Program-made: the position numbers and the translations under genes | The notes under the pieces: model-generated | Database searches by the model: none | What the model saw: only the letters and a program-made list of their open reading frames with translations | What the model was told of the DNA's origin: nothing | Shown: one piece after another, positions 788 through 28,075 of the stretch | How positions within the stretch are numbered: the stretch's first letter is position 1 | Layout: each line of letters opens with the position of its first letter | Assembly (NCBI RefSeq): GCF_054482595.1 | Contig: NZ_CM137008.1 | Strand: one strand, 5' to 3' | Length of the DNA: 64,000 nt

Positions 788-795
788 GAATTTTT

Positions 796-2525: not shown

Positions 2526-2562
2526 GCTTTTTACCCTAACCTTGTACTATCTACAAAAATAA

Positions 2563-5500: not shown

Positions 5501-7638
5501 TTTTCTTCCACCGGCTGCAACTGTGCGTATTCGTGTTCACTGTGGTAAACGAATGGCATCAAGCCGGACACCACCAGACGATCAAGCGTAATGGTCGGTA
5601 GTGTGGCAAATGACGCTGAGTCGTATTGTTCCTGCTCTGCGCAGATAGTTTGTACCAGTTGTAAATGGTAGGCCAACACTAGGGGATGCAACGGGGAGAG
5701 ACGTTCATGACTGTCGACATTACAAATACCCAGATGCAGCAGGCGCTTTTCCTGCGCTGTTAACGCTCTGCTCAACTCGATTTGTTGAAGCGCCTGTTCA
5801 AAGGTCGTCACTATATGGCTTACCAGCGCGCAGTATTCTGCTGACCACGATACTAGGCTAGGTAAAGTACCGCAGCGCTGGTAGTAGAGGAATAATTGGT
5901 CGTAGGCGTTATAGAGATCGGGGTGGATGGCAACGAGTTCATCCAGCGCAAACGCGCTATCGTCATCTCCTGTCCCCAAAAGACGTTGATCAACTAATGA
6001 GGCTTCCAGCGCCAGTAACTGCTGGCGAACACCGACAACCTTGTGTTCGGTATTATCAAGAATGATACGACCCTTCAATCGGTTCCAGGACGCATTCCCG
6101 TCTTCTTTGAACAGTTTATTGAAACGACTCTGGTCAAAAAGTAGCGGTAAGGTTAACCCTTCTTCGGCTCCCGGCCCTTCGATATTGAATGCCAGACAAG
6201 AATCACCTGAAACAAGCTTAAATTGGATCAGATCGCTTTGATTTGCCAGTGTTTCAAAATTCACCAATGCATAATGCTGGCAGTCAATATCACCATTTTC
6301 TTCATCCAGTATACAGACTTGGCTACCCGACTCAGCGATTCGTAGTTCGTTGTCTTCGCGTTGGAGTGTGATTTGTGGTTTACCTGGCTCGATACGGAAA
6401 CAATGCTGAATATCGTCTAGCCAGAATTGTCCTTGTCTGACCAGTAACAGGCGGAACTTGTACTCTTCGGCTGAATTATTGCGATTAGTCAGTTCGAGGC
6501 TAAAGAAGCAGGGATTCCCATCGAAAGGAACCGACGCCATAATACGGGAGCTTTTACCCCCTGCACGACTAATTCGCCAGAAACGCTCTTTTTTTAACTG
6601 ACGATGATGCGCAATTTTTATCTGGTTATCCTGAAGATCGTTGCCCTGAAAGCAAAACTCCAGCTCAGTTTGCGATTGTTCGGGTGGTACCTGTACCAGT
6701 AGGCTGATATCGCGCTTGCCTGCTTTACTTGCGCTTTTCGCCCGTTGCCAAATCACGCCATTTTCGACCGTGATATCATCCAGTACCAGTTTTTGTTCGC
6801 GGTTCTGTTCTTTTTCGTTTAGATAAACAGCGAAATCAAGCTCGCGCCAGTCGTCTTTATCATTGAAATGTTCCTGAATAAATTTGGCGCTGAATTCAGT
6901 TAATACGTTCTCCAGTTGCCCACTGTAGCGTTCAACGCTGTCCTCGATTTGACGAAATAACTTCCTGTTTTCATTCAGTCGGGTATGGAGCTGTTTCTGG
7001 CTAAAATTCAGTAGTTCATCATCTTTAAACAGCGATAGCTCGGAGAAATCCAGATTGCCGTCATCCAGCAGGCGATACAACGACGAGAAGCCAAATACGG
7101 TCGCACCTTCATCCAGTACCGTTGTTCGTTGATCCTTTAATAAGCAACGCGACAACTCTGAACGGTTGTTGTCCGTCGTGATCAACTTTTCCAATTCATG
7201 ACTGAAGGTTTCGGGGTGCCAGATAGCTCCCGGTGCCGCGACGTCTTTTGTGCTGTTAATCAGGGTGTCCAGCATGCTGTTATGAATAATCAGCAGTGCA
7301 GTTTTGGCAAACACCCCGCTGCGGCCAGCAACTTCATCGCGTAAATGGGATATGTAGTTTTCCGTGAATGCTGGCGCTGCGGCTCCGTGCAGCACCGGAA
7401 TAAGCTGAATACCATTACAGGAGAGACAGGCAAGGCGCTGCTCTGGCGCAATTTCCAGATGATTGTCACCTGCCAGGTCAACAAAAGCCTGCCAGAGTTG
7501 TAGAGCATTGTCAGGGTCAGGAGATTTAAACTGGTAACGCTCACCAGGTTGAATAATGCCACTAACCCATTCAATAAAGGTTTCCGCCAGATAGGTTTCA
7601 TACTGTTTTACGGACATACACGGCGTCTCCACTGTCAC
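2563..7638 (-). CDS. dptH: DptH/DndH-like large ATPase/helicase-type protein of the phosphorothioate-dependent restriction module (1691 aa)
   Basis: 5076-bp ORF with Walker A (GIIGTMGTGKTQF) and Walker B-like (ILVDEADNF) motifs; third gene of a three-gene operon adjacent to dndDE; gene sizes match what I recall for dptFGH of Salmonella/E. coli dnd islands. Start may be the downstream ATG at 7617. Confidence 0.75.
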   Translation of the reverse strand: MTVETPCMSVKQYETYLAETFIEWVSGIIQPGERYQFKSPDPDNALQLWQAFVDLAGDNHLEIAPEQRLACLSCNGIQLIPVLHGAAAPAFTENYISHLRDEVAGRSGVFAKTALLIIHNSMLDTLINSTKDVAAPGAIWHPETFSHELEKLITTDNNRSELSRCLLKDQRTTVLDEGATVFGFSSLYRLLDDGNLDFSELSLFKDDELLNFSQKQLHTRLNENRKLFRQIEDSVERYSGQLENVLTEFSAKFIQEHFNDKDDWRELDFAVYLNEKEQNREQKLVLDDITVENGVIWQRAKSASKAGKRDISLLVQVPPEQSQTELEFCFQGNDLQDNQIKIAHHRQLKKERFWRISRAGGKSSRIMASVPFDGNPCFFSLELTNRNNSAEEYKFRLLLVRQGQFWLDDIQHCFRIEPGKPQITLQREDNELRIAESGSQVCILDEENGDIDCQHYALVNFETLANQSDLIQFKLVSGDSCLAFNIEGPGAEEGLTLPLLFDQSRFNKLFKEDGNASWNRLKGRIILDNTEHKVVGVRQQLLALEASLVDQRLLGTGDDDSAFALDELVAIHPDLYNAYDQLFLYYQRCGTLPSLVSWSAEYCALVSHIVTTFEQALQQIELSRALTAQEKRLLHLGICNVDSHERLSPLHPLVLAYHLQLVQTICAEQEQYDSASFATLPTITLDRLVVSGLMPFVYHSEHEYAQLQPVEENRFWIDVVPQRQVSHDYVKRLVKDKLNEFTEAYARLFQSPGNNALIINAINQGTAKELFLGLVEYFKQEKEHAISVHVNCYDERLLPNMFDRFAESGSYEQLKNDLDLNRGAWRAEADMLIDLLRSRLTFSKFVLPSESDKLAYAHLAFFTNTAPVDCRQIRIEDAASGVLCHGLISGEGAETQGDAYFTAFGLRNVDTESYCALRLARLVGCLWQPARQSNSQYHGQGIGLAVSGNFKQLLNYSYNSALWTTIIDPKVTLDFFTSQKDVVLIHYSDQYTSCAGYDAVTVTKQVDLFLRLLQTESQSGQSAVDSQHLLAEFNAFNGEWLLKMLRSSEKERKEKYGIIGAYKFVQSMLSESDICWVPLSVAEMIRVSGNVGLKMKESDLSRNLQGYRKGAISDDVLFVGFKENRLYLLPLEVKTGARPDYNYAGQQAAELKRYLQQDILEPHTLASQLYRALFIRQVLMQVEKLQLYGVLDSDKLAPLLDRREWWLTGDYQLGELKDYANGFVVAHVDSGSCFDLSYKETTANILQIEIPYSLLSSLITTREGKLPLAERYRVPDKYRLKPESDEHPSPSASGVQVTTPPDTRPDIPKPTPEVSTVPLQVLFGHDATRQTPLFWEPTNTTKFMNTNTGIIGTMGTGKTQFTKSLVTQLMRNQSCNVDGKSIGLLIFDYKSDYVDEAFLKATGGKKYQLSLLPYNPLSLFGDMPMLPRHTAIAFSETMGKAYNLGVKQRMKLVTLIMECYELAGIVPHDRSTWNRVAPTIEDVWQRYLAQEKVEEDSLYAALYNLAGFQIFETDPEKMTSLYDLVDGVTVIELAGYSSEIQNLVVALTLDLFYAQMQKRGKPVIQGDYRQLTKMILVDEADNFMRQDFSSLRKILKEGREYGVGAILSTQEITHFKTGENNYASYILTWVIHRVSEIKNADIKAVFNVDDKGEQESLMGQIRQLEKHFSLYVDGDKRVSKMRDRAFWELVF

Positions 7639-8923
7639 TCATTCGCTCCACATTTCCCATACGTTCATAAAACGCTACCAGCGTTTGTGCCGACTGGTTA
7701 TCCAGATAAAATCCGCGCTGTTCAAAGCCGCGCAGCAACTCATGCAGGCGTAGTTTGTCATTTTTACCCACAGTGAGATTGGTCAGCAGCAGCAGACGAT
7801 CCTGATTCAGTACCAGTACTTTTCCCGCCCGACCACGTACCTGAATGAAATCGGTGCAGATCTGGGTTTCAAGCTCGTTGATGTATTTCCGGTTAACTGT
7901 CGCACGATCAGATTTCTTATCCTGAAACTGTTCAACAGCAACGGTTAATAATTGTTTAAAAGCTTCTTCCAGCGTAACGGCTTGCGTATACTTCGATGCC
8001 GAAAGCTCGCGTTTTTCGATAAACTCCTGCAAATAATTATTGAGATCTTGCAGTAATTGAGATGAGTTATCAGAAAAATTTAAGCAATCCTGATAGACCT
8101 GCCAGAGTGGACGCTTCTTATCTCCTTTTATTTGTAGAACTTCCAGCGCGGAGAGTATTGGGAAAAGTTTTTCACTTTGACGAGCGAACCACTTATAACC
8201 AAAGCGTTTTATTTGATCCCGTTCAGAACTGGCTTTTTCAGTGTCGAGAATAAAGAAAAGCGACTTACTTTGTGGCTCGCCGTCCTGCCAGTTGTCCAGA
8301 TTGAGCGCTAGCTGGGCACACCAGCTAAAGGCATATAAACGCAGAGTATTAGTCAGTTCTTGTAACAAATATTGAGGGTGTTCTGCCAAAAACGCCAGAT
8401 CAGACTGAAAACAAGTCACCAGATAGGGAAGGTAGGGTTGTTCTTCAGAGAATGGGCCTTTTCCCAATAACTTTATTTTTTCATTGAGCTTATTTAGCAT
8501 TTGCTGCTCAATGAAGTTCAGCTTATCCTGGATAGGATATTCCAAGCTGAAATCTCCCATTAGATTAGCAAACAGAGTGCCAAGGCGTTTATCGGCCATT
8601 GAAGCGCCACTTATTTTTTCGCCATCAAACTGAGCATGAAATAGTAAAAAAAGCGGAGATACACGAAAGATATCTTCACTGGAAAAATACATCCGTTCCA
8701 GTACAGTCCAGAATGCTGGTTCATCAAGCAATTCTTGCAAATGAGCCTTGCAATCATCGCGAAATTGACTGGGAGTATAGGCATCAATTTTACGCTTCAG
8801 GGCGTAACTAAGCACCAATCCGGTGACAAATTGCCAGTTAATATCATTGTTTTTGTTACGTATCGGCAGATAACTATCCAGTTGATTATTACCTACTTTT
8901 AACGTCGTTGCGATAGGGTACAT
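7598..8923 (-). CDS. dptG: DptG/DndG-like protein (441 aa)
   Basis: 1326-bp ORF between dptF and dptH on the same strand, 4-nt gap from dptF stop; size and context match dptG. Confidence 0.7.
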   Translation of the reverse strand: MYPIATTLKVGNNQLDSYLPIRNKNNDINWQFVTGLVLSYALKRKIDAYTPSQFRDDCKAHLQELLDEPAFWTVLERMYFSSEDIFRVSPLFLLFHAQFDGEKISGASMADKRLGTLFANLMGDFSLEYPIQDKLNFIEQQMLNKLNEKIKLLGKGPFSEEQPYLPYLVTCFQSDLAFLAEHPQYLLQELTNTLRLYAFSWCAQLALNLDNWQDGEPQSKSLFFILDTEKASSERDQIKRFGYKWFARQSEKLFPILSALEVLQIKGDKKRPLWQVYQDCLNFSDNSSQLLQDLNNYLQEFIEKRELSASKYTQAVTLEEAFKQLLTVAVEQFQDKKSDRATVNRKYINELETQICTDFIQVRGRAGKVLVLNQDRLLLLTNLTVGKNDKLRLHELLRGFEQRGFYLDNQSAQTLVAFYERMGNVERMSDSGDAVYVRKTV

Positions 8924-8927
8924 TCCA

Positions 8928-10577
8928 CTAACCCTCCATACCGCTAATGGTGATCATGTCGTCGTCCGCTTTAGCGCGATAAACTCGCCGCCCACCAGCA
9001 TAAAACTTGATTTCGCTGCTGGATTTGGCCTGTTCAGTAATCAAATCAACGATTTCGTCCAGTAGAACAATGGCATTTTTATCGTATTTATTGGGGCGAT
9101 AGCCATTGTTTAATTTGTTCAAAAGTTCAAATAAATTAAGTCCGATACGAACTGGTAACAGAGAGTTTTGCCCAACTTTTAAATGCACGTCGAAGCCAGT
9201 AGGGTGGGCCGTATTTTTATTGCGGATGGCCTCCCAGTCAGGTTTCAATTCGACTGGCGCGGTTATTTTTACCCCACCATATTCACCTAAAAAGAACTCT
9301 TCTTTTTGCATACTCAATTCCGGCGCTTTGCGGTTTGCATAGCGCTGAATACCAGCAATAAGTTCGGATGTATAAAACCGGTTCAGTGCTTTTTTCTGCT
9401 CTGAGTCAGCGATGTAATTTTTGTGCAGATGCCAGATTTCTGAATAATGCTCAAATAAAGATTCATTGAAGAATACGGAAAATTTCTGATGATAATTATT
9501 CCCCAGAGATTCATCCTGCAGCAACCAGAAGAGCCGAATTAATGAAGCCGCATCACCCGGATTAACGCACTGGCGATCAAATCTAATGTGTAATGGCGCG
9601 AGTGCAGCTAAAAAATCATCCAGTTCAGGGTCAACCAGGCCCAATTCGTAGCGCAAAATAAACTGATCGATTTCATAGGTGTGCAGCCTAGCAGGATCAA
9701 AATCAGAAACTTTTTTAATCAGGTCGTTTTCTGCCCCAGTGAAAAGATTATCAAATAAATACCCCGGCCCCATAAGCAAATGATGCAGAAAATCCAATAG
9801 AGTTCGGGTTGTCACAAACTGATCTTTAATCAGGCGGGCCTTAAAGAGCTGAGTGATGAGAACATCCTGAACACCCGGCAGACAAAGTAATTTATAGTTA
9901 GCAACTTCTTTCAGCTCAGGGTTAACGGTCTCATCATGTCGAAAAATAAACTGAAACAAATTACTATCATCATTACGGGTTAAATTATCCAGTAATGTTT
10001 TAATAAACGATGAATACTGTTTTTTTTCATTAAACTGGAATTTAGGGTAATGCTCAAAGTCAAAAAAAGAACAATGCCCACTGCGGTATGGGCGGCTTTC
10101 TTCCTGATCTGCTGACAAGAAAGAATCGATCGCAGTGCGGATCGCCAGATGGCATTCAGCACCTTCTCTGGCAAAATTGGCGAGCATCCCGGTATTGATG
10201 CCTATAAGCAAAGGAGATGAGTATTGGTGATGATTGCTAAATAAATCATTTAAAGCATCAATAGCTGATTGCCGGGGAGCAAAGCTGTGTGTTGCATCCA
10301 GATGAAAACTAAAGCGCTGCTGATAACGAGGGTTTGACTTACAACGGGTCAAAATTTCGGACTTTCCATCACCACTACTGCCACACAAAAAGATGATTTC
10401 ACCGGGCTTAGCAACATCCAGATAACGTTGCAGCTCAGTTTCAATTTCTTGTTTAACAAAGAGTTGTTCTTTTAACTGATCGAACTCATCCTTTTGACGA
10501 TGCGTTACCGTGGTTACGGAAAACGAAGATGACTTCGCAAGTACACCCAACGCTTTACGTAATGTGATTGCGCTCAT
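8928..10577 (-). CDS. dptF: DptF/DndF-like P-loop ATPase (549 aa)
   Basis: 1650-bp ORF with Walker A-like motif FLCGSSGDGKSEI; first gene of the operon, preceded by an AT-rich 5' region. Confidence 0.7.
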   Translation of the reverse strand: MSAITLRKALGVLAKSSSFSVTTVTHRQKDEFDQLKEQLFVKQEIETELQRYLDVAKPGEIIFLCGSSGDGKSEILTRCKSNPRYQQRFSFHLDATHSFAPRQSAIDALNDLFSNHHQYSSPLLIGINTGMLANFAREGAECHLAIRTAIDSFLSADQEESRPYRSGHCSFFDFEHYPKFQFNEKKQYSSFIKTLLDNLTRNDDSNLFQFIFRHDETVNPELKEVANYKLLCLPGVQDVLITQLFKARLIKDQFVTTRTLLDFLHHLLMGPGYLFDNLFTGAENDLIKKVSDFDPARLHTYEIDQFILRYELGLVDPELDDFLAALAPLHIRFDRQCVNPGDAASLIRLFWLLQDESLGNNYHQKFSVFFNESLFEHYSEIWHLHKNYIADSEQKKALNRFYTSELIAGIQRYANRKAPELSMQKEEFFLGEYGGVKITAPVELKPDWEAIRNKNTAHPTGFDVHLKVGQNSLLPVRIGLNLFELLNKLNNGYRPNKYDKNAIVLLDEIVDLITEQAKSSSEIKFYAGGRRVYRAKADDDMITISGMEG

Positions 10578-10794
10578 AACTTCATGTTCTCAAAAGTAGG
10601 ATTATACCTATTCTATAAAAGCTATCCGCTGATATCTATAGGCACTTTGAGACATTTATTACGGGCAATTTTAAAATTGTATCTTTTCCATCCGTACACA
10701 AAACACATCCAGAGATGGCGGGGAAAATCCATCTATCAACCAGTTCCACTTTGGAAATTGCTTGATTAGTAGTATCTTAATCAAACACATACGC

Positions 10795-10975
10795 TAAATA
10801 TTACCCCCGATTGATTTTCGCATAGTCAAACAGCGTAATCGATCTCTCCCTATTCGCATCCAGAAAATCAGCCCACCATACTGCAAATCAGCTCGCGCTC
10901 ATCCAGATGTTCTGCCTTATGGATATACGCCCCCTTACCGATGTGACTCATCTGACGTTCAGCCGCTTTATCTCA
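10795..10975 (-). pseudogene. Decayed 3' fragment of a P4-type integrase gene (remnant of a second int copy)
   Basis: About 180 bp with roughly 75-80 percent identity (by eye) to the 3' end of the intact integrase gene at about 13930-14110 (for example gcatccagaaaatc...ttatggatatacgc...ctcatctgacgttca shared); same orientation; 5' two-thirds of the gene absent. Confidence 0.6.
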
Positions 10976-11072
10976 TGTTGTTCTGGTCTCAATACTTCCA
11001 TGCCGTTGCAATTACCTCTTAAACCAGCCCTTACCATTTTTATGGGTACGATAAGAAAACTTTATCGGGCAC

Positions 11073-11103
11073 GATCGATTTTATCGATCGATTCGATCGA
11101 AAA
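11073..11103 (+). promoter_or_regulatory. Cluster of three GATC sites inside tandem tcgatcgat-like repeats, about 90-115 bp upstream of the outer-membrane protein gene
   Basis: GATC at 11073-11076, 11086-11089 and 11095-11098, each inside CGATCG; read directly from sequence. Regulatory role is hypothetical. Confidence 0.3.
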
Positions 11104-11189
11104 CATTCCTTTTACCTTATCTTTTTCATGGTCTTAGAATGAGCAACCCCATTTATCGTTCGGGGAAAGTGATAGCGGAGATGATTGAA

Positions 11190-11930
11190 ATGAATAAGGT
11201 TATTGCGGTTTCAGCGCTTGCCATGGCAGGCATGTTTTCGACCCAGGCTCTGGCTGATGAAAGCAAAACAGGCTTTTATGTGACCGGTAAAGCAGGTGCT
11301 TCTGTTATGTCACTTGCAGACCAGCGTTTCCTGTCGGGGGATGGAGAGGAAACATCAAAATATAAAGGCGGTGATGGCCATGATACGGTATTCAGTGGCG
11401 GTATCGCGGCCGGTTATGATTTTTACCCGCAGTTCAGTATTCCGGTTCGTACGGAACTGGAGTTTTACGCTCGTGGAAAAGCTGATTCGAAGTATAACGT
11501 AGATAAAGACAGCTGGTCAGGCGGTTACTGGCGTGATGACCTGAAGAATGAGGTGTCAGTCAACACACTGATGCTGAATGCGTACTATGACTTCCGGAAT
11601 GACAGTGCATTCACACCATGGGTATCTGCAGGGATTGGCTACGCCAGAATTCACCAGAAAACAACCGGTATCAGTACCTGGGATTATGGGTACGGAAGCA
11701 GTGGTCGCGAATCGTTGTCACGTTCAGGCTCTGCTGACAACTTCGCATGGAGCCTTGGCGCGGGTGTCCGCTATGACGTAACCCCGGATATCGCTCTGGA
11801 CCTCAGCTATCGCTATCTTGATGCAGGTGATAGCAGTGTGAGTTACAAGGACGAGTGGGGCGATAAATATAAGTCAGAAGTTGATGTTAAAAGTCATGAC
11901 ATCCTGCTTGGTGTGACTTATAACTTCTGA
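11190..11930 (+). CDS. Outer-membrane beta-barrel protein, Hek/Tia/Hra-like adhesin/invasin family suspected (about 246 aa precursor)
   Basis: Start chosen at internal ATG 11190 preceded by GGAG at -12; typical signal peptide MNKVIAVSALAMAGMFSTQALA then DESK; alternating aromatic/glycine-rich beta-strand pattern; C-terminal YNF with terminal Phe typical of OMP beta-barrels. Family name is from memory only. Confidence 0.65.
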   Translation: MNKVIAVSALAMAGMFSTQALADESKTGFYVTGKAGASVMSLADQRFLSGDGEETSKYKGGDGHDTVFSGGIAAGYDFYPQFSIPVRTELEFYARGKADSKYNVDKDSWSGGYWRDDLKNEVSVNTLMLNAYYDFRNDSAFTPWVSAGIGYARIHQKTTGISTWDYGYGSSGRESLSRSGSADNFAWSLGAGVRYDVTPDIALDLSYRYLDAGDSSVSYKDEWGDKYKSEVDVKSHDILLGVTYNF

Positions 11931-12103
11931 CGACACTGCTCCTGAACGATAATACGTATATTTAGCAATTAAGATAATTGCGTATCTTCTGCAATTAAAC
12001 AGAAATACCCTGCAGTCTATTACTGCAGGGTTATCTGTTTCACAGATAATTTCTGATTTTTATTATCCTGTTCTCTTCATCATAATGTTGTCGATATACT
12101 CCG

Positions 12104-13603
12104 ATGAATATCAGAAAACTGTTTTGTCCGGGAAACACACCCCGGATTTTATTGTTTTTATTCTTTTTTGTTGTTTCTGCAATAACCACAATTGCATGCG
12201 GATACACTGAGAAGAATGCCACAGGAAATGTGCTGCTTCTGTTTCTCCTTCTTCTCCTTGCACACAGAAATACCCTCACATCCATTACAGCGCTGTTATT
12301 TCTGTTCTGTTGTGCACTGTATGCGCCTGCGGGTATGACGTACGGTAAAATCAACAACAGTTTTATTGTCGCGTTGCTGCAGACCACGGCTGATGAGGCT
12401 GCAGAGTTTACCGGGATGATTCCTGTTTATCATTTTCTGGTCAGTGCCGCGATTCTGGTATTCATGGTGATTTTCTGGCGGACACACCACCGCGGTCACC
12501 GTAACTGGCTGGCACTGCTGCTATTCGTATTATGCTCTGTAAACAGCTGGCCGTTGCGGATGGTTAAAGGAACTGTTGTGGGGACAACTGACACATTGCG
12601 TGAAATGCAGCGTTATAAACAACTGAGTCAGCACGGGGCTGATAACTGGAAAATCCTGCCGGGTGTGCCGTTGTATGACACGATTGTTATCGTTACTGGT
12701 GAGAGTGTGCGCAGGGATTATATGTCGGTATATGGCTATCCCGTGCCAACCACGCCGTGGCTGAATACTGCTCCCGGTTTATTTATTGACGGCTATACAT
12801 CGACAGCAGCCAGTACCGTACCTTCCCTGAGCCGGACACTGATTTATGACTATGAGCAGAACCCTGACTCCGGCAACAACGTGGTGGCGCTGGCAGCAAA
12901 AGCAGGATACAGCACATGGTGGATATCCAATCAGGGAAAACTGGGAGAGCATGACACACGCATCTCTGTTATTGCTTCTGATGCGGAGCATACCGTTTTC
13001 CTCAAGAAAGGCAGCTTCGCTTCCCGTAAAACGGATGACATGTTGTTGTTACAGGAAACAGAACGTGCGCTGGCGGATAAATCCTCGCCGAAGGTGATTT
13101 TCCTGCACATGATTGGCTCTCATCCGAATCCGTGTGACCGACTTAACTCCTGGCCGAATTATTACCTGGAGCAGTATCCCCGAAAGATTGCCTGTTACCT
13201 CGCCAGCATCAGTAAACTGGATAACTTTCTCGGTCAGCTTGATGGTATCCTTCGCCGGCATTCCCGTCACTTTGCAATGCTTTACTTTTCTGACCATGGG
13301 CTGTCGGTCAGCGACAGTGCTAATCCTGTTCATCATGATGGTCATGTGCAGGGGGGCTACAGCGTTCCCCTGATTATTACCGCCAGTGACATCACGTCTC
13401 ATCAGTCCGTCAGCAGGAAAATCAGTGCCCGTAATTTCGCAGGCATTTTTCAGTGGCTGACCGGTATTCGTACCGAAAATATAACGCCATTCAATCCGCT
13501 GACAGACGAAGATAATGAACCCGTTATGGTTTTTAACGGAGAGAAAAATGTGCCGGCAGACAGTCTGAAACCGCAGCCACTTATTCTTCCGGACCACAGG
13601 TAA
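12104..13603 (+). CDS. Inner-membrane sulfatase-family / phosphoethanolamine transferase-like protein (YhbX/YjgX-like, 499 aa)
   Basis: N-terminal hydrophobic helices followed by a periplasmic domain with motifs IVTGESVRRDY, HMIGSHPNP and LYFSDHG, typical of the alkaline-phosphatase-superfamily PEA transferases; position next to the leuX integrase matches the K-12 yjgX locus. Confidence 0.6.
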   Translation: MNIRKLFCPGNTPRILLFLFFFVVSAITTIACGYTEKNATGNVLLLFLLLLLAHRNTLTSITALLFLFCCALYAPAGMTYGKINNSFIVALLQTTADEAAEFTGMIPVYHFLVSAAILVFMVIFWRTHHRGHRNWLALLLFVLCSVNSWPLRMVKGTVVGTTDTLREMQRYKQLSQHGADNWKILPGVPLYDTIVIVTGESVRRDYMSVYGYPVPTTPWLNTAPGLFIDGYTSTAASTVPSLSRTLIYDYEQNPDSGNNVVALAAKAGYSTWWISNQGKLGEHDTRISVIASDAEHTVFLKKGSFASRKTDDMLLLQETERALADKSSPKVIFLHMIGSHPNPCDRLNSWPNYYLEQYPRKIACYLASISKLDNFLGQLDGILRRHSRHFAMLYFSDHGLSVSDSANPVHHDGHVQGGYSVPLIITASDITSHQSVSRKISARNFAGIFQWLTGIRTENITPFNPLTDEDNEPVMVFNGEKNVPADSLKPQPLILPDHR

Positions 13604-13926
13604 TCATATATGGCAAACTGTAATACAGTCTCTTGTACTGAAAAGGATTCTGTATAGAATAGAACCTGTATTCATATCAGCACAAGGGACCACCAAATCC
13701 CGGCAACATTCCTTACGTCAGTTATCCCGCATCACCCTGTGGGTGCGGGATTTTTTATGATGTTTCTTTTTATTGAATATATATAAATAACGAATAACTG
13801 CGGATTCTGATAATCCACCTGCAGGGAGCAATCCGGTAAACATTTAATACATCAGTTAATATCGTTTTGCCTTTTTAACAAAGAAAATATTCATGGAGTA
13901 AGTTCCCGGGCATTTGCCCGGGATGA

Positions 13927-15192
13927 TTACTGTTTTAATGGATTATTAATCTTTGCATATTCAAATGGACTGATAAATTTTTCTCTGTTTGCATCCAGAA
14001 AATCGGCCCACCATTGTAGCATCAAGCGGCGTTCTTCCAGATGCTCTGCTTTATGGATATACGCGGCCCTCACTGAATTTCGCTCCATGTGGCTCATCTG
14101 ACGTTCAACAGCATCACGAGACCACAAACCTGATTCGACCAATGAACTACAGGCCATTGTTCGAAAGCCATGACCACAAACCTCTACTTTTGTATCATAC
14201 CCCATGACCCGTAACGCACTATTTACCGTATTCTCACTCATGGGTTTGTGCGAATCGTGATCACCAATAAATATCAAGTCATGGGCCCCACAAAACTGTT
14301 TTATCTGCTTTAAAATTGCAAGAGCTTGCGTTGAAAGAGGCACTAGATGCGTTGTACGCATTTTTGAGCCTCTATGGGAATGTTTCACTCCAGGAATAGG
14401 CTCCCGCTCCGGTGGGATAGTCCATATAGACGCTTCGAAATCGATCTCTGACCAACGAGCAAAACGCAGCTCACTGGACCGAATAAAGATCAGCAAAGAG
14501 AGTTCTGTCGCCCATCGGGTTAGCGGCCTACCAGTATAGCTATCTATTTTTGTAAGCAACTCAGGGATGCGCTTTAATTCAAGCGCGGGACGATGTTGTC
14601 GATTACAGGAAGCAACCGCCCCAGCCATCTCTTGTGCCGGGTTATAATCAATTAACCCACTTTGCACTGCATAGCGCATGATGGCTGTAGTGCGCTGCTG
14701 AAGACGAGCGGCCACTTCAAGACGTCCAGACATTTCTACGGCCTTAATGGGTGCTAATAAATCTCGAGTTTTTAACTCAGCGATATTACGTTCACCAAGC
14801 GCTGCAAAAAGATTATCTTCCAGACTTTTTAGCACACGATGGGCGTGATCTTCAGACCACTTTTTATTGGTGCCATGCCACTCAATCGCGACTTCTTTAA
14901 AGGTTCGTGCTTTACTCTGTTCAACCTTATCATTTTTCTTTTTGTCTCCCGGATCGACGCCATTCGCAAGCAGCTTACGCGCCTCGTCACGACGTACTCT
15001 GGCATCCGCTAGTGTGATTTCAGGATAAACCCCAAGTGCCAGCATTTTTTGCTTTCCCTCATAACGGTACTGCAAACGCCAGTACTTAGAACCATTTGGA
15101 TGGACAAGCAGATGCATACCGCCACCATCAGTCAGCTTATATTGCTTATCCGTTGGCTTGGCTGCTCTGACTTTGATATCTGTTAATGCCAT
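13927..15192 (-). CDS. intB: P4-type tyrosine recombinase/integrase (IntB-like, 421 aa)
   Basis: Translation MALTDIKVRAAKPTDKQYKLTDGGGMHLLVHPNGSKYWRLQYRY... is a typical P4-family integrase N-terminus, with C-terminal catalytic region motifs (HGFR, Y near the C-terminus); start is adjacent to the 3' end of tRNA-Leu. Confidence 0.85.
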   Translation of the reverse strand: MALTDIKVRAAKPTDKQYKLTDGGGMHLLVHPNGSKYWRLQYRYEGKQKMLALGVYPEITLADARVRRDEARKLLANGVDPGDKKKNDKVEQSKARTFKEVAIEWHGTNKKWSEDHAHRVLKSLEDNLFAALGERNIAELKTRDLLAPIKAVEMSGRLEVAARLQQRTTAIMRYAVQSGLIDYNPAQEMAGAVASCNRQHRPALELKRIPELLTKIDSYTGRPLTRWATELSLLIFIRSSELRFARWSEIDFEASIWTIPPEREPIPGVKHSHRGSKMRTTHLVPLSTQALAILKQIKQFCGAHDLIFIGDHDSHKPMSENTVNSALRVMGYDTKVEVCGHGFRTMACSSLVESGLWSRDAVERQMSHMERNSVRAAYIHKAEHLEERRLMLQWWADFLDANREKFISPFEYAKINNPLKQ

Positions 15193-15207
15193 GCGTATTC
15201 CCTCCCT

Positions 15208-15265
15208 GTTGGTACAAGCATTATCGAACCGGAAATACCATCATCTGTACCAACATATGTTGGTA
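15208..15265 (-). promoter_or_regulatory. Repeated TGTTGGTA motif: perfect 18-bp palindrome taccaacatatgttggta (15248-15265) plus a third copy (15208-15217) upstream of int; candidate integrase/regulator binding sites in the int promoter-att region
   Basis: Motifs read directly from sequence between the int start codon (15192) and the leuX terminator. Confidence 0.3.
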
Positions 15266-15341
15266 GATGTACGTTGATATCGGTTGACCTTGAGAGAGTT
15301 AATATAGCGGGAAAGGTAGATAAACACTGGATTTCAGGCAT

Positions 15342-15366
15342 AAAAAAAGACCTCAGTTGAGGTCTA
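15342..15366 (-). terminator. Rho-independent terminator of leuX
   Basis: Hairpin agacctcagttgaggtct followed on the minus strand by a U-run (plus-strand A7 at 15342-15348), immediately 3' of the tRNA. Confidence 0.6.
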
Positions 15367-15378
15367 TTTACATACTTT

Positions 15379-15463
15379 TGGTGCCGAAGGCCGGACTCGA
15401 ACCGGCACGTATTTCTACGGTTGATTTTGAATCAACTGCGTCTACCGATTTCGCCACTTCGGC
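15379..15463 (-). tRNA. leuX: tRNA-Leu (anticodon CAA), leuX
   Basis: Minus-strand 85-nt sequence GCCGAAGTGGCGAAATCGGTAGACGCAGTTGATTCAAAATCAACCGTAGAAATACGTGCCGGTTCGAGTCCGGCCTTCGGCACCA, recognised as leuX with encoded CCA; P4-type integrase immediately 3'. Confidence 0.9.
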
Positions 15464-15658
15464 ACTGAAGAGGTATGCGGAAAACGTTGTGGATTATACC
15501 TGTCGCACGCCACCATGCAAGCGCCAGCTTGCTCGCACCTCGCTAAGTGCTGAAATTTTCAGCATTGCATACAGCGATGTGTAACCTTTGTCACACTCCA
15601 GGCACCCCGCCCTGCCATGCTCTACACTTCCCAGACAACACCAGAGAAGGACCAAAAA

Positions 15659-16678
15659 ATGTCGATGATAAAAAGCTATGCCGCAAAAGAAGCAGGCGGC
15701 GAATTGGAAGTTTATGAGTACGATCCCGGTGAACTGAAGCCATAAGATGTTGAAGTGCAGGTGGATTACTGCGGGATCTGCCATTCCGATCTGTCGATGA
15801 TCGATAACGAATGGGGATTTTCACAATATCCGCTGGTTGCCGGGCATGAGGTGATTGGGCGCGTGGTGGCACTCGGGAGCGCCGCGCAGGATAAAGGTTT
15901 GCAGGTCGGTCAGCGTGTCGGGATTGGCTGGACGGCGCGTAGCTGTGGTCACTGCGACGCCTGTATTAGCGGTAATCAGATCAACTGCGAGCAAGGTGCG
16001 GTGCCGACGATTATGAATCGCGGTGGCTTTGCCGAGAAGTTACGTGCGGACTGGCAATGGGTGATTCCACTGCCAGAAAATATTGATATCGAGTCCGCCG
16101 GGCCGCTGTTGTGCGGCGGTATCACGGTCTTTAAACCACTGTTGATGCACCATATCACTGCTACCAGCCGCGTTGGGGTAATTGGTATTGGCGGGCTGGG
16201 GCATATCGCTATAAAACTTCTGCACGCAATGGGATGCGAGGTGACGGCCTTTAGTTCTAATCCGGCGAAAGAGCAGGAAGTACTGGCGATGGGTGCCGAT
16301 AAAGTGGTGAATAGCCGCGATCCGCAGGCACTGAAAGCCCTGTCGGGGCAGTTTGATCTCATTATCAATACTGTGAACGTCAGCCTCGACTGGCAGCCTT
16401 ATTTTGAGGCGCTGACCTATGGCGGTAATTTCCATACAGTCGGTGCGGTTCTCACGCCGTTGCCGGTTCCGGCCTTTACGCTGATTGCGGGCGATCGCAG
16501 TGTCTCTGGCTCTGCTACCGGTACACCTTATGAGTTGCGTAAGCTGATGCGCTTTGCCGCCCGCAGCAAGGTTGCGCCGACTACCGAACTGTTCCCGATG
16601 TCGAAAATTAACGACGCCATCCAGCATGTGCGCGACGGTAAGGCGCGTTACCGCGTGGTTCTGAAAGCTGACTTCTGA
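15659..16678 (+). pseudogene. ahr: Zinc-dependent aldehyde reductase Ahr (YjgB) with in-frame TAA at codon 29 (15743-15745)
   Basis: ATG at 15659 gives [28 protein letters not shown] then TAA, then the frame continues [16 protein letters not shown]... through the full MDR-family alcohol dehydrogenase to 16678; the ORF track only picks up from GTG 15755. Confidence 0.65.
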
Positions 16679-16807
16679 TCTCTTTGCCGGGTGCCTGTCG
16701 CCCGGCACTTAAATCTCTTTGGAAGGCGTCTCGCAATCTGCTGAATTTAGCGGTGAAGAGTGCGCAGCCGTTGCCTATACTCCAGGCAGGAAACTGGAGG
16801 AAATCTC

Positions 16808-18310
16808 ATGAGCGAACCCCTGTTAATTGCCCGTACGCCGGACACAGAACTGTTTTTACTACCCGCTATGGCTAACCGTCACGGACTGATTACTGGCGCA
16901 ACGGGGACGGGTAAAACCGTTACGCTGCAAAAACTGGCAGAGTCATTGTCGGAAATCGGCGTGCCGGTGTTTATGGCTGATGTGAAAGGCGATCTGACCG
17001 GTATCGCGCAGGCAGGAACGGCGTCGGAAAAACTGCTCACAAGGCTTAAAAATATCGGCGTCAATGACTGGCAACCGCATGCCAATCCGGTGGTGGTGTG
17101 GGATATCTTTGGCGAGAAAGGCCATCCGGTGCGGGCGACGGTCTCGGATCTGGGGCCGCTGTTGCTGGCGCGGCTGTTGAATCTCAACGATGTGCAATCT
17201 GGCGTGCTGAATATCATTTTCCGCATTGCTGACGATCAGGGGCTGTTACTGCTCGACTTTAAAGATCTACGGGCAATTACCCAGTACATCGGCGATAACG
17301 CCAAATCTTTCCAGAATCAGTACGGTAATATCAGTAGCGCATCGGTTGGTGCCATCCAGCGCGGGCTGTTGTCGCTGGAACAGCAAGGCGCAGCACACTT
17401 CTTTGGTGAGCCGATGCTGGATATCAAAGACTGGATGCGCACCGATGCCAACGGTAAAGGCGTTATTAATATCCTCAGCGCCGAGAAGCTTTATCAGATG
17501 CCGAAACTGTACGCCGCCAGCCTGCTGTGGATGATTTCAGAGTTGTATGAACAATTGCCGGAAGCGGGCGATCTGGAGAAGCCAAAACTGGTGTTTTTCT
17601 TCGACGAAGCACATCTGCTGTTTAACGATGCACCGCAGGTACTGCTGGATAAGATTGAGCAGGTGATAAGGCTTATTCGCTCAAAAGGCGTGGGCGTCTG
17701 GTTCGTTTCGCAAAACCCGTCTGATATTCCAGATAATGTGCTCGGCCAGCTCGGTAATCGCGTTCAGCACGCTTTGCGGGCTTTTACGCCAAAAGATCAG
17801 AAAGCAGTGAAGGCAGCGGCGCAAACCATGCGGGCTAATCCGGCGTTTGATATCGAAAAGGCAATCCAGGAACTGGGGACGGGCGAAGCGTTGATCTCGT
17901 TTCTCGATGCAAAAGGAAGTCCTTCTGTGGTGGAACGGGCGATGGTGATTGCGCCTTGTTCGCGGATGGGACCGGTGACGGAAGATGAGCGCAATGGCTT
18001 GATTAATCACTCTCCGGTGTATGGCAAGTACGAGGATGACGTGGACCGGGAATCCGCCTATGAGATGTTGCAAAAAGGCTTTCAGGCCAGTACCGAGCAG
18101 CAAAATAATCCCCCCGCGAAAGGGAAAGAGGTAGCGGTAGATGACGGCATTCTTGGTGGATTGAAGGATATTTTGTTCGGCACTACCGGACCACGCGGCG
18201 GGAAGAAAGATGGTGTGGTGCAAACAATGGCCAAAAGCGCCGCTCGCCAAGTGACGAATCAGATTGTACGCGGGATGTTGGGGAGTTTGCTGGGGGGGAG
18301 AAGAAGGTAA
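16808..18310 (+). CDS. yjgR: P-loop NTPase YjgR (DUF853 family, 500 aa)
   Basis: Translation [37 protein letters not shown]... with Walker A; real start at internal ATG 16808. Confidence 0.85.
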
Positions 18311-18311
18311 G

Positions 18312-18362
18312 TCAGGCGAGATTTGTCTTTGCCTGATGCGACGCTGGCGCGTCTTATCATGC
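18312..18362. repeat. REP (repetitive extragenic palindromic) element
   Basis: gcctgatgcgacgctggcgcgtcttatcatgcc-type palindromic unit after yjgR. Confidence 0.5.
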
Positions 18363-18470
18363 CCACCCCACTGCAATATATTGAATTTTAATTATTTTTC
18401 AGGAATGAACGAAGCACACTTTGCTAACAATAATAAAGGGAGCTTTCGCTCCCTTTATTCGTTCATTTGG

Positions 18471-19553
18471 TTACGATTTTCTCATTAACAGCCACAGGCT
18501 GATTAAGAAGAAGCTGGCGCTTGGCAACAGTGCGCCAATGATCGGCGGGATGCCGTAAACCAACGTCAGCGGACCGAAGATCTGGTCCAGTACGTAGAAG
18601 ACAAAACCGAAGCTGATACCGGTGACCACACGCACGCCCATCGGTACGCTACGCAGTGGGCCAAAGATGAACGACAGCGCCATCAGCATCATCACCGCCA
18701 CGGATAGCGGCTGGAAGATTTTGCTCCACATGTTGAGCTGATAACGTCCGGCATCCTGACCGCTCGACTTCAGATACTTCACGTAGTTGTGCAAACCACT
18801 GATGGAGAGTGCATCCGGGTCCAGCGCCACCACGCCCAGTTTGTCCGGTGTGAGGTTGGTTTTCCAGGTGCCGCTCACCGTCTGCGAACCGGTAATCTGT
18901 TTCGGATTGGTCAGATCAGATTCATCAACCTGCGACAGACGCCAGACTTTATGTTCCGGGTCAAACTTCGCAGTAGCGGCATAGCGTACGGATTGCAGAC
19001 GACGATTCTCGTTAAAGGCATAAATGCTGATGCCACCTAACTCTTCGTCACCTTTAACCCGCTCAATGTAGACGAAGTTGTTGCCATCTTTCGCCCATAA
19101 GCCTTGCTGGGTAGAGAGCAACGAGCCGCCGTACATCGCCTGCGCACGGTAGTTACGCGCCATCTGTTCGCCCTGCGGCGCAACCCATTCGCCAATCGCC
19201 ATCGTCAGCAAGACCAGCGGAATGGCGGTTTTCATCACCGACAGCGCCACCTGCATACGGGTAAAACCAGAAGCCTGCATCACCACCAGTTCGCTGCGCT
19301 GCGCCAGCATCCCAAGACCAAGCAACGCCCCAAGCAGAGCCGCCATCGGGAAGAATATTTGCACATCTTTCGGCACGCTCAGCAAGGTATACATTCCTGC
19401 GCCTAACGCGTCGTAACTCCCCTGCCCGGCTTTTTTCAACTGATCGACAAACTTGATAATGCCCGACAGCGACACCAGCATGAACAGCGTCATCATGATG
19501 GTTGTGAAAATAGTTTTACCGATATAGCGGTCAAGTACGCCAAAAGGTTGCAT
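18471..19553 (-). CDS. lptG: LPS export ABC permease LptG
   Basis: Translation MQPFGVLDRYIGKTIF... recognised as LptG (360 aa); overlaps lptF stop. Confidence 0.9.
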   Translation of the reverse strand: MQPFGVLDRYIGKTIFTTIMMTLFMLVSLSGIIKFVDQLKKAGQGSYDALGAGMYTLLSVPKDVQIFFPMAALLGALLGLGMLAQRSELVVMQASGFTRMQVALSVMKTAIPLVLLTMAIGEWVAPQGEQMARNYRAQAMYGGSLLSTQQGLWAKDGNNFVYIERVKGDEELGGISIYAFNENRRLQSVRYAATAKFDPEHKVWRLSQVDESDLTNPKQITGSQTVSGTWKTNLTPDKLGVVALDPDALSISGLHNYVKYLKSSGQDAGRYQLNMWSKIFQPLSVAVMMLMALSFIFGPLRSVPMGVRVVTGISFGFVFYVLDQIFGPLTLVYGIPPIIGALLPSASFFLISLWLLMRKS

Positions 19554-20653
19554 CACACCGCTCCTTTACGCGAAAAACTGGCGCGCAGGCGGCGGACCGG
19601 CACGGTGTCCCAAAGGTTGAGAACAATCGCCAAAGCCAGATAAATCAGGTTAACGGTCCACATCCACAGCGTCGGGTCCAGCTTACCTTTACCGCCGTTC
19701 GATTTCAGGGAGGTCTGGATCAGGAAGAAAAGTAGATACAGCAGCATGGCTGGCAGCATCGACAGTACGCGTCCCTGACGTGGGTTAACCACGCTCAGCG
19801 GTACGACCATAAGTGCCATCATAAACACGGTGAATACCAACGTGATACGCCAGTTCAGTTCTGCGCGAGCACGATCGGTGTCAGTGTTCCACAATGTGCG
19901 CATGTCCATCTGGTCGGTATCGTTCGGGTCGAGCGCCACCGCCTGGTGACCAATGATCGCCTGATAATCCTGGAAGTCCGTAATGCGGAAATCACGTAAC
20001 AATGCAGTGCCTTCGAAGCGCGTTCCCTGGTTGAGAGTGACGACCTGGGAGCCGTCGCGCAGCTGGGTTAAATGTCCGGAATCGGCCACCACCACAGAAG
20101 GACGTGCATTACCTTTTGGTCGAATTTGTGCGAGGAACACATCTTTGAAATCGCTGCCGTCAACGCTTTCGATGAACAGCACCGAGCTGCCATTAGTCGC
20201 TTGCTGGAATTGCCCTTGCGCCAGCGCCGCCATGCCAGGGTTCGCTTTCGCTTCTGCTAACACTTCATCCTGATGACGCGATGACCACGGTCCCGCCCAC
20301 ATCACGTTAACCGCCGCGACGATTGCCGTGAATACCGCAAGGATCATTGCCGCTTTCACCAGAACCGCTTTGCTCAGGCCGCAGGCATGCATTACCGTAA
20401 TTTCACTTTCGGTATACAGTTTGCCCAGCGTCATCAGCAGCCCGAGGAACAGGCTTAATGGCAGGATAAGCTGCGCCATTTCCGGCACGCCCAACCCGAG
20501 AAGGGAGAGCACCAGATTCGCCGGAATATCGCCGTCAACCGCTGCGCCGAGGATCCTCACTAACTTTTGACAGAAGAAGATCAAAAGCAAGATGAAGAGT
20601 ATCGCCAGCTGGCTTTTGAGCGTCTCCCGCACCAGATATCTTATGATTATCAC
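19553..20653 (-). CDS. lptF: LPS export ABC permease LptF
   Basis: Translation MIIIRYLVRETLKSQLAILFILLLIFF... recognised as LptF (366 aa). Confidence 0.9.
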   Translation of the reverse strand: MIIIRYLVRETLKSQLAILFILLLIFFCQKLVRILGAAVDGDIPANLVLSLLGLGVPEMAQLILPLSLFLGLLMTLGKLYTESEITVMHACGLSKAVLVKAAMILAVFTAIVAAVNVMWAGPWSSRHQDEVLAEAKANPGMAALAQGQFQQATNGSSVLFIESVDGSDFKDVFLAQIRPKGNARPSVVVADSGHLTQLRDGSQVVTLNQGTRFEGTALLRDFRITDFQDYQAIIGHQAVALDPNDTDQMDMRTLWNTDTDRARAELNWRITLVFTVFMMALMVVPLSVVNPRQGRVLSMLPAMLLYLLFFLIQTSLKSNGGKGKLDPTLWMWTVNLIYLALAIVLNLWDTVPVRRLRASFSRKGAV

Positions 20654-20916
20654 TTTAAATACGCCCGTAAAAACTCGTCTTTTGCAGGATTTTAGCTTGT
20701 TTCATGGCTTAAACGTCATTTATTCTCTTGAGTCGTCGAAATCGTCGCTAAGATAATTATACTCAACGGATTCACCTCTCAGATTTTGTTCTGACGTGCC
20801 AATGCCGTAATAACGTTAAGATTAACACGAAGTCATCGCAACAGCGGACATGAGTTACGAAAGCTTGCAATTCTATCTGTAGCCACCGCCGTTGTCTTTA
20901 AGATTCAGGAGCGTAG

Positions 20917-22431
<1,515 letters not shown>

Positions 22432-22439
22432 TTGCGTCA

Positions 22440-22735
<296 letters not shown>

Positions 22736-22783
22736 CGGTGTATACCTGATGCGTATTTAAATCCACCACAAGAAGCCCCATAT

Positions 22784-23227
22784 ATGAAAAACGCAACGTT
22801 CTACCTTCTGGACAATGACACCACCGTCGATGGCTTAAGCGCCGTTGAGCAGCTGGTGTGTGAAATTGCCGCAGAACGTTGGCGCAGCGGTAAGCGCGTG
22901 CTCATCGCCTGTGAAGATGAAAAGCAGGCTTACCGGCTGGATGAAGCCCTGTGGGCGCGTCCGGCAGAAAGCTTTGTTCCGCATAATTTAGCGGGAGAAG
23001 GACCGCGCGGCGGTGCGCCGGTGGAGATCGCCTGGCCGCAAAAGCGCAGCAGCAGCCCGCGCGATATATTGATTAGTCTGCGAACAAGCTTTGCAGATTT
23101 TGCCACCGCTTTCACAGAAGTGGTAGACTTCGTCCCTTATGAAGATTCTCTGAAACAACTGGCGCGCGAACGCTATAAAGCCTACCGCGTGGCTGGTTTC
23201 AACCTGAATACGGCAACCTGGAAATAA
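22784..23227 (+). CDS. holC: DNA polymerase III chi subunit HolC
   Basis: 147-aa translation [57 protein letters not shown]...; stop overlaps the valS start. Confidence 0.9.
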
Positions 23228-26082: not shown

Positions 26083-26106
26083 TCAAAACACAGTGATGAA
26101 AACGAA

Positions 26107-26132
26107 GGCCGGAGCATGCTCCGGCCTTTTTT
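26107..26132 (+). terminator. Rho-independent terminator downstream of valS
   Basis: Palindrome ggccggagcatgctccggcc followed by a T6 run. Confidence 0.6.
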
Positions 26133-26137
26133 ATCTC

Positions 26138-27334
26138 TTACAGAAATGGTAAAGAAGGCATGATTCCCCGTGAAATACTGGCTAAGAAGCCTTTATCTGG
26201 TTGTTCTTCTTTATTGATTAAAGGAAGGTCATCCAAATCGCCCAGCAAATACGTATTTTTTGCCTGCCAGTCAATCATCCATATTTTCAGCAGTGGATAA
26301 GCCAGACCGCCCGTAATCCCGGATATCACCACCAACGCACACATGCGATAAAGCATACCGTGGTATGTTAAAGTTGAGCGAAAACGAATACGCCCATCAT
26401 TCAGTGACAGGTTGCTCATAAAATGATTTCGCAACGACACCGTTAAATAACTGGTGCTAACAGCAATCCCAAAATAATAGATTAACTGCGCGATTATCAT
26501 TTTACGCTGCATTTCCATAAATTGCTGTAAATTCTCAATATCATCATTTGCATACACAGAACTATCATACGCATTTAATATTTGATCGAAGATAATATAA
26601 CCAGCAACAGCGAGAAAAGGTAATAAAGCTAAAAATGCGAGGATGGCATATTTTATACAATACGCAGTATCTAATTTCACCTTGAAACGATGTATACCGA
26701 AACTGGTATTGCTCCAGAGAAAACTCATTACCAGGCTATATAAAGTACCATTAAAAATACCAATGGAAACAATACCAACTATTGCCATCAGAACCACAGA
26801 TATAATAACACTACTTGAACTATTGGCATGTAGCATCTTTGTCGAGATAAAGAAAACAGTCCCCATCCCAATGGCCATTAAAATCGGCAAGAAAAAGGTT
26901 ACCCACCAGAACCCTTTCATAGAGCAATTAAAACTAAATCTTACGCCGTTGAGACTAGTCATCAAGGCCTGATAACGCAGTCCTTTTACTGCCATAAATA
27001 TAAGCAAAACCAACAGTGACAAAGTCAAAACACAGCCAACAAGCGGCATATCTGCTGACACTGTCATTAAGATTGCGAAATAGAAAAAAACAAAAACAAG
27101 ACAACTAAAAAAAACATTCCCACCAGTAATTCCATAAGAAAATCGTTGTCCGTTAACTTCCATATTAGCATAGAGATAACGCCTACATTTCATTAATGCC
27201 CATGGTAAATAGATACCTAGCGTTATAATCGTTAACAACACATTCACCACACAAATAAGAAAATATCTCTCACCTGTACCATGAAAAACAAACGAATGGG
27301 ACGGAACATCCATTTCATTAATAACTTGAGCCAT
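26138..27334 (-). CDS. yjgN: Inner membrane protein YjgN (DUF898)
   Basis: Polytopic membrane protein at the K-12 yjgN position; start probably at internal ATG (MAQVINEMDV...). Confidence 0.8.
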   Translation of the reverse strand: MAQVINEMDVPSHSFVFHGTGERYFLICVVNVLLTIITLGIYLPWALMKCRRYLYANMEVNGQRFSYGITGGNVFFSCLVFVFFYFAILMTVSADMPLVGCVLTLSLLVLLIFMAVKGLRYQALMTSLNGVRFSFNCSMKGFWWVTFFLPILMAIGMGTVFFISTKMLHANSSSSVIISVVLMAIVGIVSIGIFNGTLYSLVMSFLWSNTSFGIHRFKVKLDTAYCIKYAILAFLALLPFLAVAGYIIFDQILNAYDSSVYANDDIENLQQFMEMQRKMIIAQLIYYFGIAVSTSYLTVSLRNHFMSNLSLNDGRIRFRSTLTYHGMLYRMCALVVISGITGGLAYPLLKIWMIDWQAKNTYLLGDLDDLPLINKEEQPDKGFLASISRGIMPSLPFL

Positions 27335-27526
27335 AAAAATTCCCTGAATTAAAAAATCCATTGATATAATTTATAGATACAGACAGTAAAATGTTCTGCC
27401 ACGTTACAATACTCTTATCAGTAATAGGCTGGCAAAAACTTTATTGCTTTATAAGATGCTTGCGCACGTAAGAAGAGAGTGGTATTAAACAAATGTATAA
27501 TTACTTTATTTTTATTGGGTTAAACT

Positions 27527-28030: not shown

Positions 28031-28075
28031 AAAAATGCCCGCTAGTGTGTGCTATCGGGCATTTTAATCAATTAA

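Follow-up and report, generated by a model that had tools for sequence, protein, structure and literature searches.

Between the tRNA gene leuX and the gene for a P4-family integrase, which lie on the same strand and are separated by a spacer of 186 bp, we identified four copies of an 8-bp motif, TG(T/A)TGGTA, at positions 15207-15265 of the 64-kb window (the whole stretch of 64,000 nucleotides analysed here). Judged from their sequence and surroundings, these copies are very probably the P'-arm (arm-type) binding sites of the adjacent integrase. The original prediction had named integrase arm-type sites among its candidates, and this claim is supported by copies of the motif at the distal end of the island, by a layout of the sites that resembles that of satellite phage P4, and by the co-variation of the motif with the arm-binding domain of Int.

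Repeats and genes in the leuX-int spacer

The elements of the region, listed from leuX towards and into int, are the following:

15379-15463, minus strand: leuX, tRNA-Leu(CAA), called by ARAGORN; the same gene as K-12 leuX (b4270); its 3' end is the attachment target
15379-15398, minus strand: 20-bp core GAGTCCGGCCTTCGGCACCA, the last 20 nt of leuX, identical to the annotated P4 attP core (L001 618-637)
15341-15365, minus strand: intrinsic terminator of leuX, found by a terminator scan and as inverted repeat I2; stem at 15348-15365 plus a T run; on the island side of the core
15283-15287 and 15273-15277, minus strand: two TCAAC repeats, 10 bp apart, on the core side of the arm sites
15258-15265, plus strand: site 1, TGTTGGTA, inverted relative to int; right half of the palindrome; an extra copy compared with P4
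15248-15255, minus strand: site 2, which reads TGTTGGTA in the sense of int and makes up the left half of the palindrome; at the position of the first P4 P' repeat
15236-15243, minus strand: site 3, which reads TGATGGTA in the sense of int; spaced from site 2 by 12 bp, the P4 tandem period
15219-15232, minus strand: conserved element CCGGTTCGATAATG, between sites 3 and 4; contains a GATAAT hexamer resembling a -10 element
15207-15214, plus strand: site 4, TGTTGGTA, inverted relative to int; abuts the Shine-Dalgarno sequence; at the position of the inverted P4 repeat
15200-15206, minus strand: int Shine-Dalgarno sequence GGGAGGG, recognized by sequence, 7 nt upstream of the ATG at 15192
13927-15192, minus strand: intact P4-family tyrosine integrase (intB type) of 421 aa, from the open reading frame and Pfam

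According to Pfam, the integrase consists of an Arm-DNA-bind_3 domain (residues 3-87, E = 7.6e-29), a Phage_int_M domain and a catalytic domain, and it shares 59.5% amino acid identity with P4 Int. The arm motif TGTTGGTA is unrelated to the core GAGTCCGGCCTTCGGCACCA. Read in the direction of int, the layout of the four sites is <- -> -> (12-bp period) ... <-, with sites 1 and 2 parted by 2 bp.

The perfect 18-bp palindrome that drew attention to this region, TACCAACATATGTTGGTA, sits exactly at 15248-15265. Likewise, the third half-site reported some distance away is a true copy, but its position had been misplaced by one nucleotide, as TGTTGGTACA occupies 15207-15216 and not 15208-15217. The fourth copy, which carries one mismatch, had been overlooked: TACCATCA on the plus strand, i.e. 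TGATGGTA on the minus strand, is located at 15236-15243, at a spacing of exactly 12 bp from the copy at 15248-15255. The palindrome exists because the extra inverted copy, site 1, faces site 2.

Taken by statistics alone, the cluster is moderately unusual, and it is the comparative evidence that lifts the feature above chance. The exact 8-mer TGTTGGTA occurs five times on both strands of the 64-kb window, compared with 1.77 expected, and three of these five occurrences fall within 59 bp. In Markov simulations, 0.6% of 186-bp regions contained some 8-mer three or more times; however, since about 15 other places in the window likewise have some 8-mer at least three times per 186 bp, the raw count is mildly unusual at most. 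Perfect palindromes of at least 18 bp number three in the window against 0.24 expected. The other two, AAGGCCGGAGCATGCTCCGGCCTT (24 bp, 26105-26128) and GGGGCGCAATTGCGCCCC (18 bp, 42198-42215), are GC-rich and look like terminator stems. A lone copy of TGTTGGTA at 3597 falls within a coding region that matches dptH (by its match to strain W5-6).

The terminator of leuX lies on the island side of the core, so that int needs a promoter of its own within a stretch of about 150 bp. A scan of 15100-15500 detected no sigma-70 consensus promoter there, and inspection by hand gave weak candidates only. The conserved element CCGGTTCGATAATG carries 9 nt that are identical to the T-arm of leuX (direct repeat D3, 15224-15232 and 15397-15405); it is kept in all four motif classes described below, and its TTCGAT is kept in P4 as well. 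From these features, CCGGTTCGATAATG could be the -10 element of int or an additional core-type half-site.

Distal island end and arm-motif classes

The island runs off the start of the window, within whose 64 kb no second copy of the core was found, and its P arm, which lies beyond the window, was read in matching genomes. Strain SM107, which matches window positions 12000-20000 at 100%, has at its distal end, about 77.5 kb from leuX, two tandem copies of TGTTGGTAT with a 12-bp period, separated by 57 bp from a leuX core copy. The order there is cgTGTTGGTAtc tgTGTTGGTAta, 57 bp of AT-rich DNA, and then TTCGAGTCCGGCCTTCGCACCA, a core copy without one G. The same P arm is found about 39 kb from leuX in strain W5-6, where it directly adjoins another module, one that is truly of the P4 type and has the arm repeats of P4 itself. 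This is the result of a check proposed along with the original prediction, namely a search for the motif at the distal end; the prediction was to fall if, among other things, related islands lacked the motif, and the motif occurs in both places. The same two tandem sites beside a core copy are also present in L008 (whose flanks are about 74% identical), L009 and L091, and a P arm of the window type was detected in 1692 of 5426 complete E. coli genomes.

Relatives of the region were collected by scanning one genome per species, which yielded 80 loci from many genera of Enterobacterales with integrases that are 68-94% identical. ARAGORN was run on 60 of the 80 loci and called a tRNA in 51, and all 51 adjoin tRNA-Leu(CAA). 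The positions of the sites are kept across the loci, while all copies within a locus switch sequence together, by class:

Class A (window type): TACCAACA nn TGTTGGTA .... TGATGGTA ... TACCAACA
Class B: TGAGTATA twice ... TATACTCA
Class C: TGCGGGTA twice ... TACCC(A/G)CA
Class D: like class A but with TGATGGTA; includes the Salmonella houtenae locus

Together with P4, the integrases at leuX appear to comprise at least five arm classes that share one core: P4 (TGGGGGCA), A (TGTTGGTA), B (TGAGTATA), C (TGCGGGTA) and D (TGATGGTA). When aligned to the P4 motif TGGGGGCA, all classes have TG at positions 1-2 and A at the last position, and all except class B have GG at positions 5-6. The motifs of the P arm and the P' arm agree in classes A and B and in P4. 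In class B, the P arms seen at tandem junctions (L066, L102) consist of two copies of TGAGTATA with a 12-bp period and are situated some 56-58 bp away from the core, and the P arm of L066 pairs with a class B int (L084) located 24 kb away on the same scaffold. The class C island of E. coli OkiPb01700 has lost its distal core copy, and the gene map of AR_452, which carries the same type of class C island, suggests a similar loss.

Sites 1-4 are essentially invariant across 25 class A loci from many genera. This within-class footprint is weak, because the whole 125-bp region is highly conserved within class A. The dinucleotide between sites 1 and 2 is the most variable position of the region among these loci, being TA, GA, CA, AG or AA, so that the perfect palindrome is a property of this allele, shared with K-12, and not the selected feature. 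Furthermore, site 1 is present in classes A and D but absent from classes B and C and from P4. The number of sites changes in exact 12-bp units: Serratia sp. PL17 (L046) has three tandem direct copies, whereas in E. coli JNE170426 (L091) the TGTTGGTAcaga unit is gone, site 4 is mutated and Int is truncated. The functional unit appears from these comparisons to be the 8-bp site rather than the 18-bp palindrome.

Among these relatives, which have the same core and the same tRNA but four motif classes, site specificity tracks the arm domain of the integrase. When Int is divided into thirds, conservation within a class is highest in the arm domain (residues 1-90), with 0.93 in class A, 0.91 in B and 0.96 in D. 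Between classes A and B, whose motifs differ, it is the most diverged third, with 0.64 for the arm domain as opposed to 0.79 for the middle and 0.86 for the catalytic part. In contrast, classes A and D, which share the motif, display no excess divergence of the arm domain (0.73 vs 0.72 and 0.76). Class-specific residues are found in three segments: KLTDG vs SLVDG vs KMADG in the first, MHLLVHP vs MfLLvkP vs LYLEVSA in the second, and YWRLQYR vs YWRLRYR vs YWRFRFR vs YWRMKYR in the third. By analogy with the arm domains of further integrases, we infer that these three segments lie in the sheet that contacts DNA; the solved structures of homologous arm domains are those of isolated N-domains without DNA (3JU0, 3JTZ/3RMP).

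Copies of TCAAC at a 10-bp period are found in classes A-C in two to three copies (two in the window, three in B and C), and their sequence is kept across classes whose arm motifs differ. Sites for recombination directionality factors (RDFs) are typically direct repeats one helical turn apart (PMC7498355). By this resemblance, the TCAAC repeats are candidate sites for an accessory factor, either an RDF of the AlpA/Vis type or IHF; a search of L005 with the IHF consensus gave no match near the att sites.

The missing G in the distal core copy is common to SM107 and W5-6, and this particular island may therefore no longer excise. Where the leuX core recurs at island junctions outside a tRNA gene, most of these secondary copies are one G short, i.e. 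GGCCTTCG-CACCA as opposed to GGCCTTCGGCACCA. In an unbiased set, this is true of seven of nine junctions, with L029 and L046 retaining GG. The shortened core was found in L005 (26654-26678), L094 (32303-32324), L007, L008, L009, L019, L026, L036, L047, L050, L057, L066 and L091, independently of the classes that flank the copy; P4 attP itself has GG. A scan of viral contigs revealed the shortened core at many P4-like right ends, a search biased by the pattern that it used, and a sole same-class junction (L105), on a contig that is not demonstrably circular. Either many attP sites are one G short and strands are exchanged 3' of the missing G, or attR is locked by a lesion that keeps recurring.

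Proposed function and alternative explanations

We infer physical binding of the sites by Int, a requirement for them in recombination, and autoregulation of int. In the proposed mechanism, the N-terminal Arm-DNA-binding domain of Int would dock on the P' sites and on the two tandem P-arm copies at the far end of the island, while the C-terminal domains would bind the core within the leuX 3' end and cleave it there. Such bridging of arm and core, probably aided by DNA-bending factors, would build the intasome for integration. Excision would involve the same bridging plus a directionality factor of the AlpA type; the island encodes an AlpA-family protein, whose gene is a candidate for this role.

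Bound between the terminator of leuX and the ribosome-binding site of int, the integrase would also probably lower the expression of its own gene. Such negative autoregulation through the sites is made plausible by the terminator, which forces a local promoter, by the position of site 4 next to the Shine-Dalgarno sequence, and by the precedents of P4, KplE1 and PAI I536, whose integrases are autorepressors that act from corresponding positions. In P4, Int binds close to the start site and so represses the promoter from which it is itself expressed (PMC2951348, PMC7286903), the arm sites of the KplE1 integrase IntS overlap the promoter PintS (PMC2951348), and IntI of PAI I536 is autorepressed. 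Because no promoter was detected in 15100-15500, we consider the chances of such autoregulation here to be about even.

The most serious alternative places the function of the repeats in RNA: the inverted copies would form hairpins in the 5' UTR of int (site 2 or 3 with site 4, and site 1 with site 2) that control translation or mRNA stability, and the DNA repeats would bind no protein. The 108-nt leader indeed folds better than its shuffled versions (z = -3.1, with 0 of 200 as good), and a -> / <- hairpin beside the Shine-Dalgarno sequence or the ATG is predicted in all classes and in P4. Copies that change in concert also stay complementary, which selection for RNA structure would yield just as well, and Vis has been suggested to act on the int mRNA of P4 (PMC2951348). 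However, the direct tandems of the P arm lie about 39 kb (W5-6) or 77.5 kb (SM107) off, outside int transcripts, and are unable to pair, and a single <- copy cannot pair with both of the tandem -> copies at their 12-bp period. In addition, the motif is degenerate at position 3, with T or A in class A and C or T in class C, and this leaves several class C loci with a C-A mismatch; the upstream copies, moreover, may not be transcribed at all. We therefore regard an RNA function in place of Int binding as unlikely, although an RNA role could add a further layer on top of it.

Slightly less probable still is that the 18-bp palindrome serves as the operator of a dimeric helix-turn-helix regulator, whether the AlpA-type protein of the island or a host factor, and is no integrase site. 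A perfect palindrome has the classic shape of a dimer operator, the island encodes an AlpA-family protein, and Vis of P4 represses int as well (PMC2951348, PMC7286903). The dyad itself, however, is not conserved, given the variable central dinucleotide in class A and the lack of site 1 in classes B and C and in P4. The half-sites instead occur singly or as 12-bp direct tandems, in the P arm too, which fits a monomeric arm domain, and the motif follows the divergence of the integrase arm domain. This explanation was rejected on the comparative data.

That the repeats are a functionless product of chance in an AT-rich intergenic region, as the roughly 15 comparable places and the three perfect palindromes in the window might suggest, is effectively refuted by the near-invariance of the sites in 25 class A loci from many genera, by the retention of their positions with concerted changes of sequence across classes, and by the recurrence of the motif beside the core copy at distal ends.

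Islands at leuX and comparison with known systems

If the sites are arm-type sites of Int, as we prefer to read them, knowing them delimits attL and attR of this island family in full, makes it possible to build minimal attP substrates, helps to predict which islands remain mobile, and accounts for the way in which int expression is probably held down. Natural pairs of arm motif and arm domain on one core are, moreover, a resource for studying or engineering the arm specificity of integrases. The accepted picture of such integrases remains unchanged.

leuX is the most heavily occupied hotspot of defence islands in E. coli (PMC12707154). The window positions 1-15378 are 99.97% identical to W5-6, with four mismatches in 15.4 kb, while the chromosome at 15379-30000 is 97-98% identical, with divergence beginning at 15672. 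The same island is thus found in different backgrounds, which points to recent horizontal spread, and the higher identity of its island part suggests recent activity of the module. Alignment to W5-6 shows that the cargo of the island at 1-10577 is a Dnd/Dpt phosphorothioation defence system that comprises the end of dndD, dndE, a gene for a DGQHR protein, and dptHGF. A fragment of a second integrase at about 10801-10966 suggests mosaic assembly. On the chromosomal side, ahr (yjgB) has an in-frame TAA at 15743-15745, owing to a C to T change at 15743 relative to W5-6; this stop codon cuts the aldehyde reductase after 28 codons, and ahr is therefore probably a pseudogene in the window strain.

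Islands of different classes are found next to each other at leuX. The junction P(A)-core-P'(C) was found in up to 354 of 5426 genomes (counting places that cover at least 80% of the query) and the junction of P(A) with P'(P4) in five of 5426. In further tandem joins, class B adjoins A or C, and P4-like elements adjoin each of the classes A-D. No intact junction of P(A) with P'(A) was detected in the 5426 genomes, the single example being decayed. One 43-kb contig (IMGVR_UViG_2859744465_000002, L102/L103) carries both a junction of a P4-like element with class B and a junction of class B with class C, each with a core that is one G short and with the arm motif of the left-hand island; this suggests an array of three elements, P4-like, class B and class C, where the order of the two stretches is assumed.

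Only tentatively do we propose that the classes act as orthogonal modules, such that islands of different classes stack yet move independently whereas same-class tandems are not maintained. The stacking pattern is equally explained by a class C island that is an old, fixed resident and by homologous recombination that collapses same-class tandems. If the classes were orthogonal, the few class-specific residues of the arm domain would constitute a readable code of protein-DNA recognition.

The closest known system is that of P4, whose int upstream region had been proposed for comparison; the direct, direct, inverted layout of P4 is reproduced by sites 2-4. The P4 record X51522 annotates "attP arm sequence repeats": the P arm has a tandem pair of 12-mers at a distance of 53 bp from the core, and the P' arm has another such pair (TTGGGGGCAT) together with one inverted copy at the start of int. 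The two systems have in common leuX as the target, an identical 20-bp core, the domain order of Int at 59.5% identity, a P arm of two tandem repeats with a 12-bp period about 53-57 bp from the core, and a P' arm with two tandem repeats and one inverted. They differ in the motif, which is TGGGGGCA in P4 and TG(T/A)TGGTA here, in the extra inverted copy (site 1) and the palindrome found here, and in the last inverted site, which abuts the Shine-Dalgarno sequence here but overlaps the start codon in P4. Furthermore, the element is a 40-80 kb defence island here and an 11.6-kb satellite phage in P4, and the binding and repression by Int are predictions in the present case. The arm repeats of P4 attP and the autoregulation by Int were reportedly described by Pierson and Kahn in 1987 and by Piazzolla and colleagues in 2006.

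The integrase of phage lambda is heterobivalent: with its N-terminal domain it binds repeated arm sites that flank the core on either side (P1, P2 and P'1-3), and the tandem P' sites are spaced by roughly one helical turn (summarised in PMC2951348). The N-domain of lambda Int belongs to a family other than Arm-DNA-bind_3, the number and orientation of its sites differ from those described here, and the lambda int promoter is not located in attL. In KplE1 (CPS-53), arm-type sites are likewise located in attL between the tRNA gene and int, and it is through these sites that Int and the RDF repress int (Panis et al. 2010, PMC2951348). In contrast to the window, KplE1 employs another integrase lineage, the tRNA gene argW and a motif that contains TAAA, and its promoter and sites were mapped experimentally (PMC2951348).

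Within E. coli K-12 MG1655, the palindrome and all four sites are present at leuX upstream of intB, in the cryptic prophage PR-Y (KpLE2), at L092 1105-1165 (about 4,496,604-4,496,664), with one base different just upstream of the start codon. In K-12, an in-frame TAG at codon 19 makes intB a pseudogene, whereas int of the window is intact. The K-12 record carries no annotation of arm sites, and in the literature searched we found no description of the TGTTGGTA sites of the intB/leuX-island integrase: a full-text search for the motif returned primer matches only, and the paper on PAI II536 contains nothing on Int sites. Arm-type sites of the P4 family have been known since sequencing of the P4 att site, and autoregulation of int via attL is well established. 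The arm-type sites are thus most likely an expected feature of such mobile islands and involve no new mechanism; somewhat newer is the point that integrases sharing one core appear to be split into discrete classes of arm specificity.
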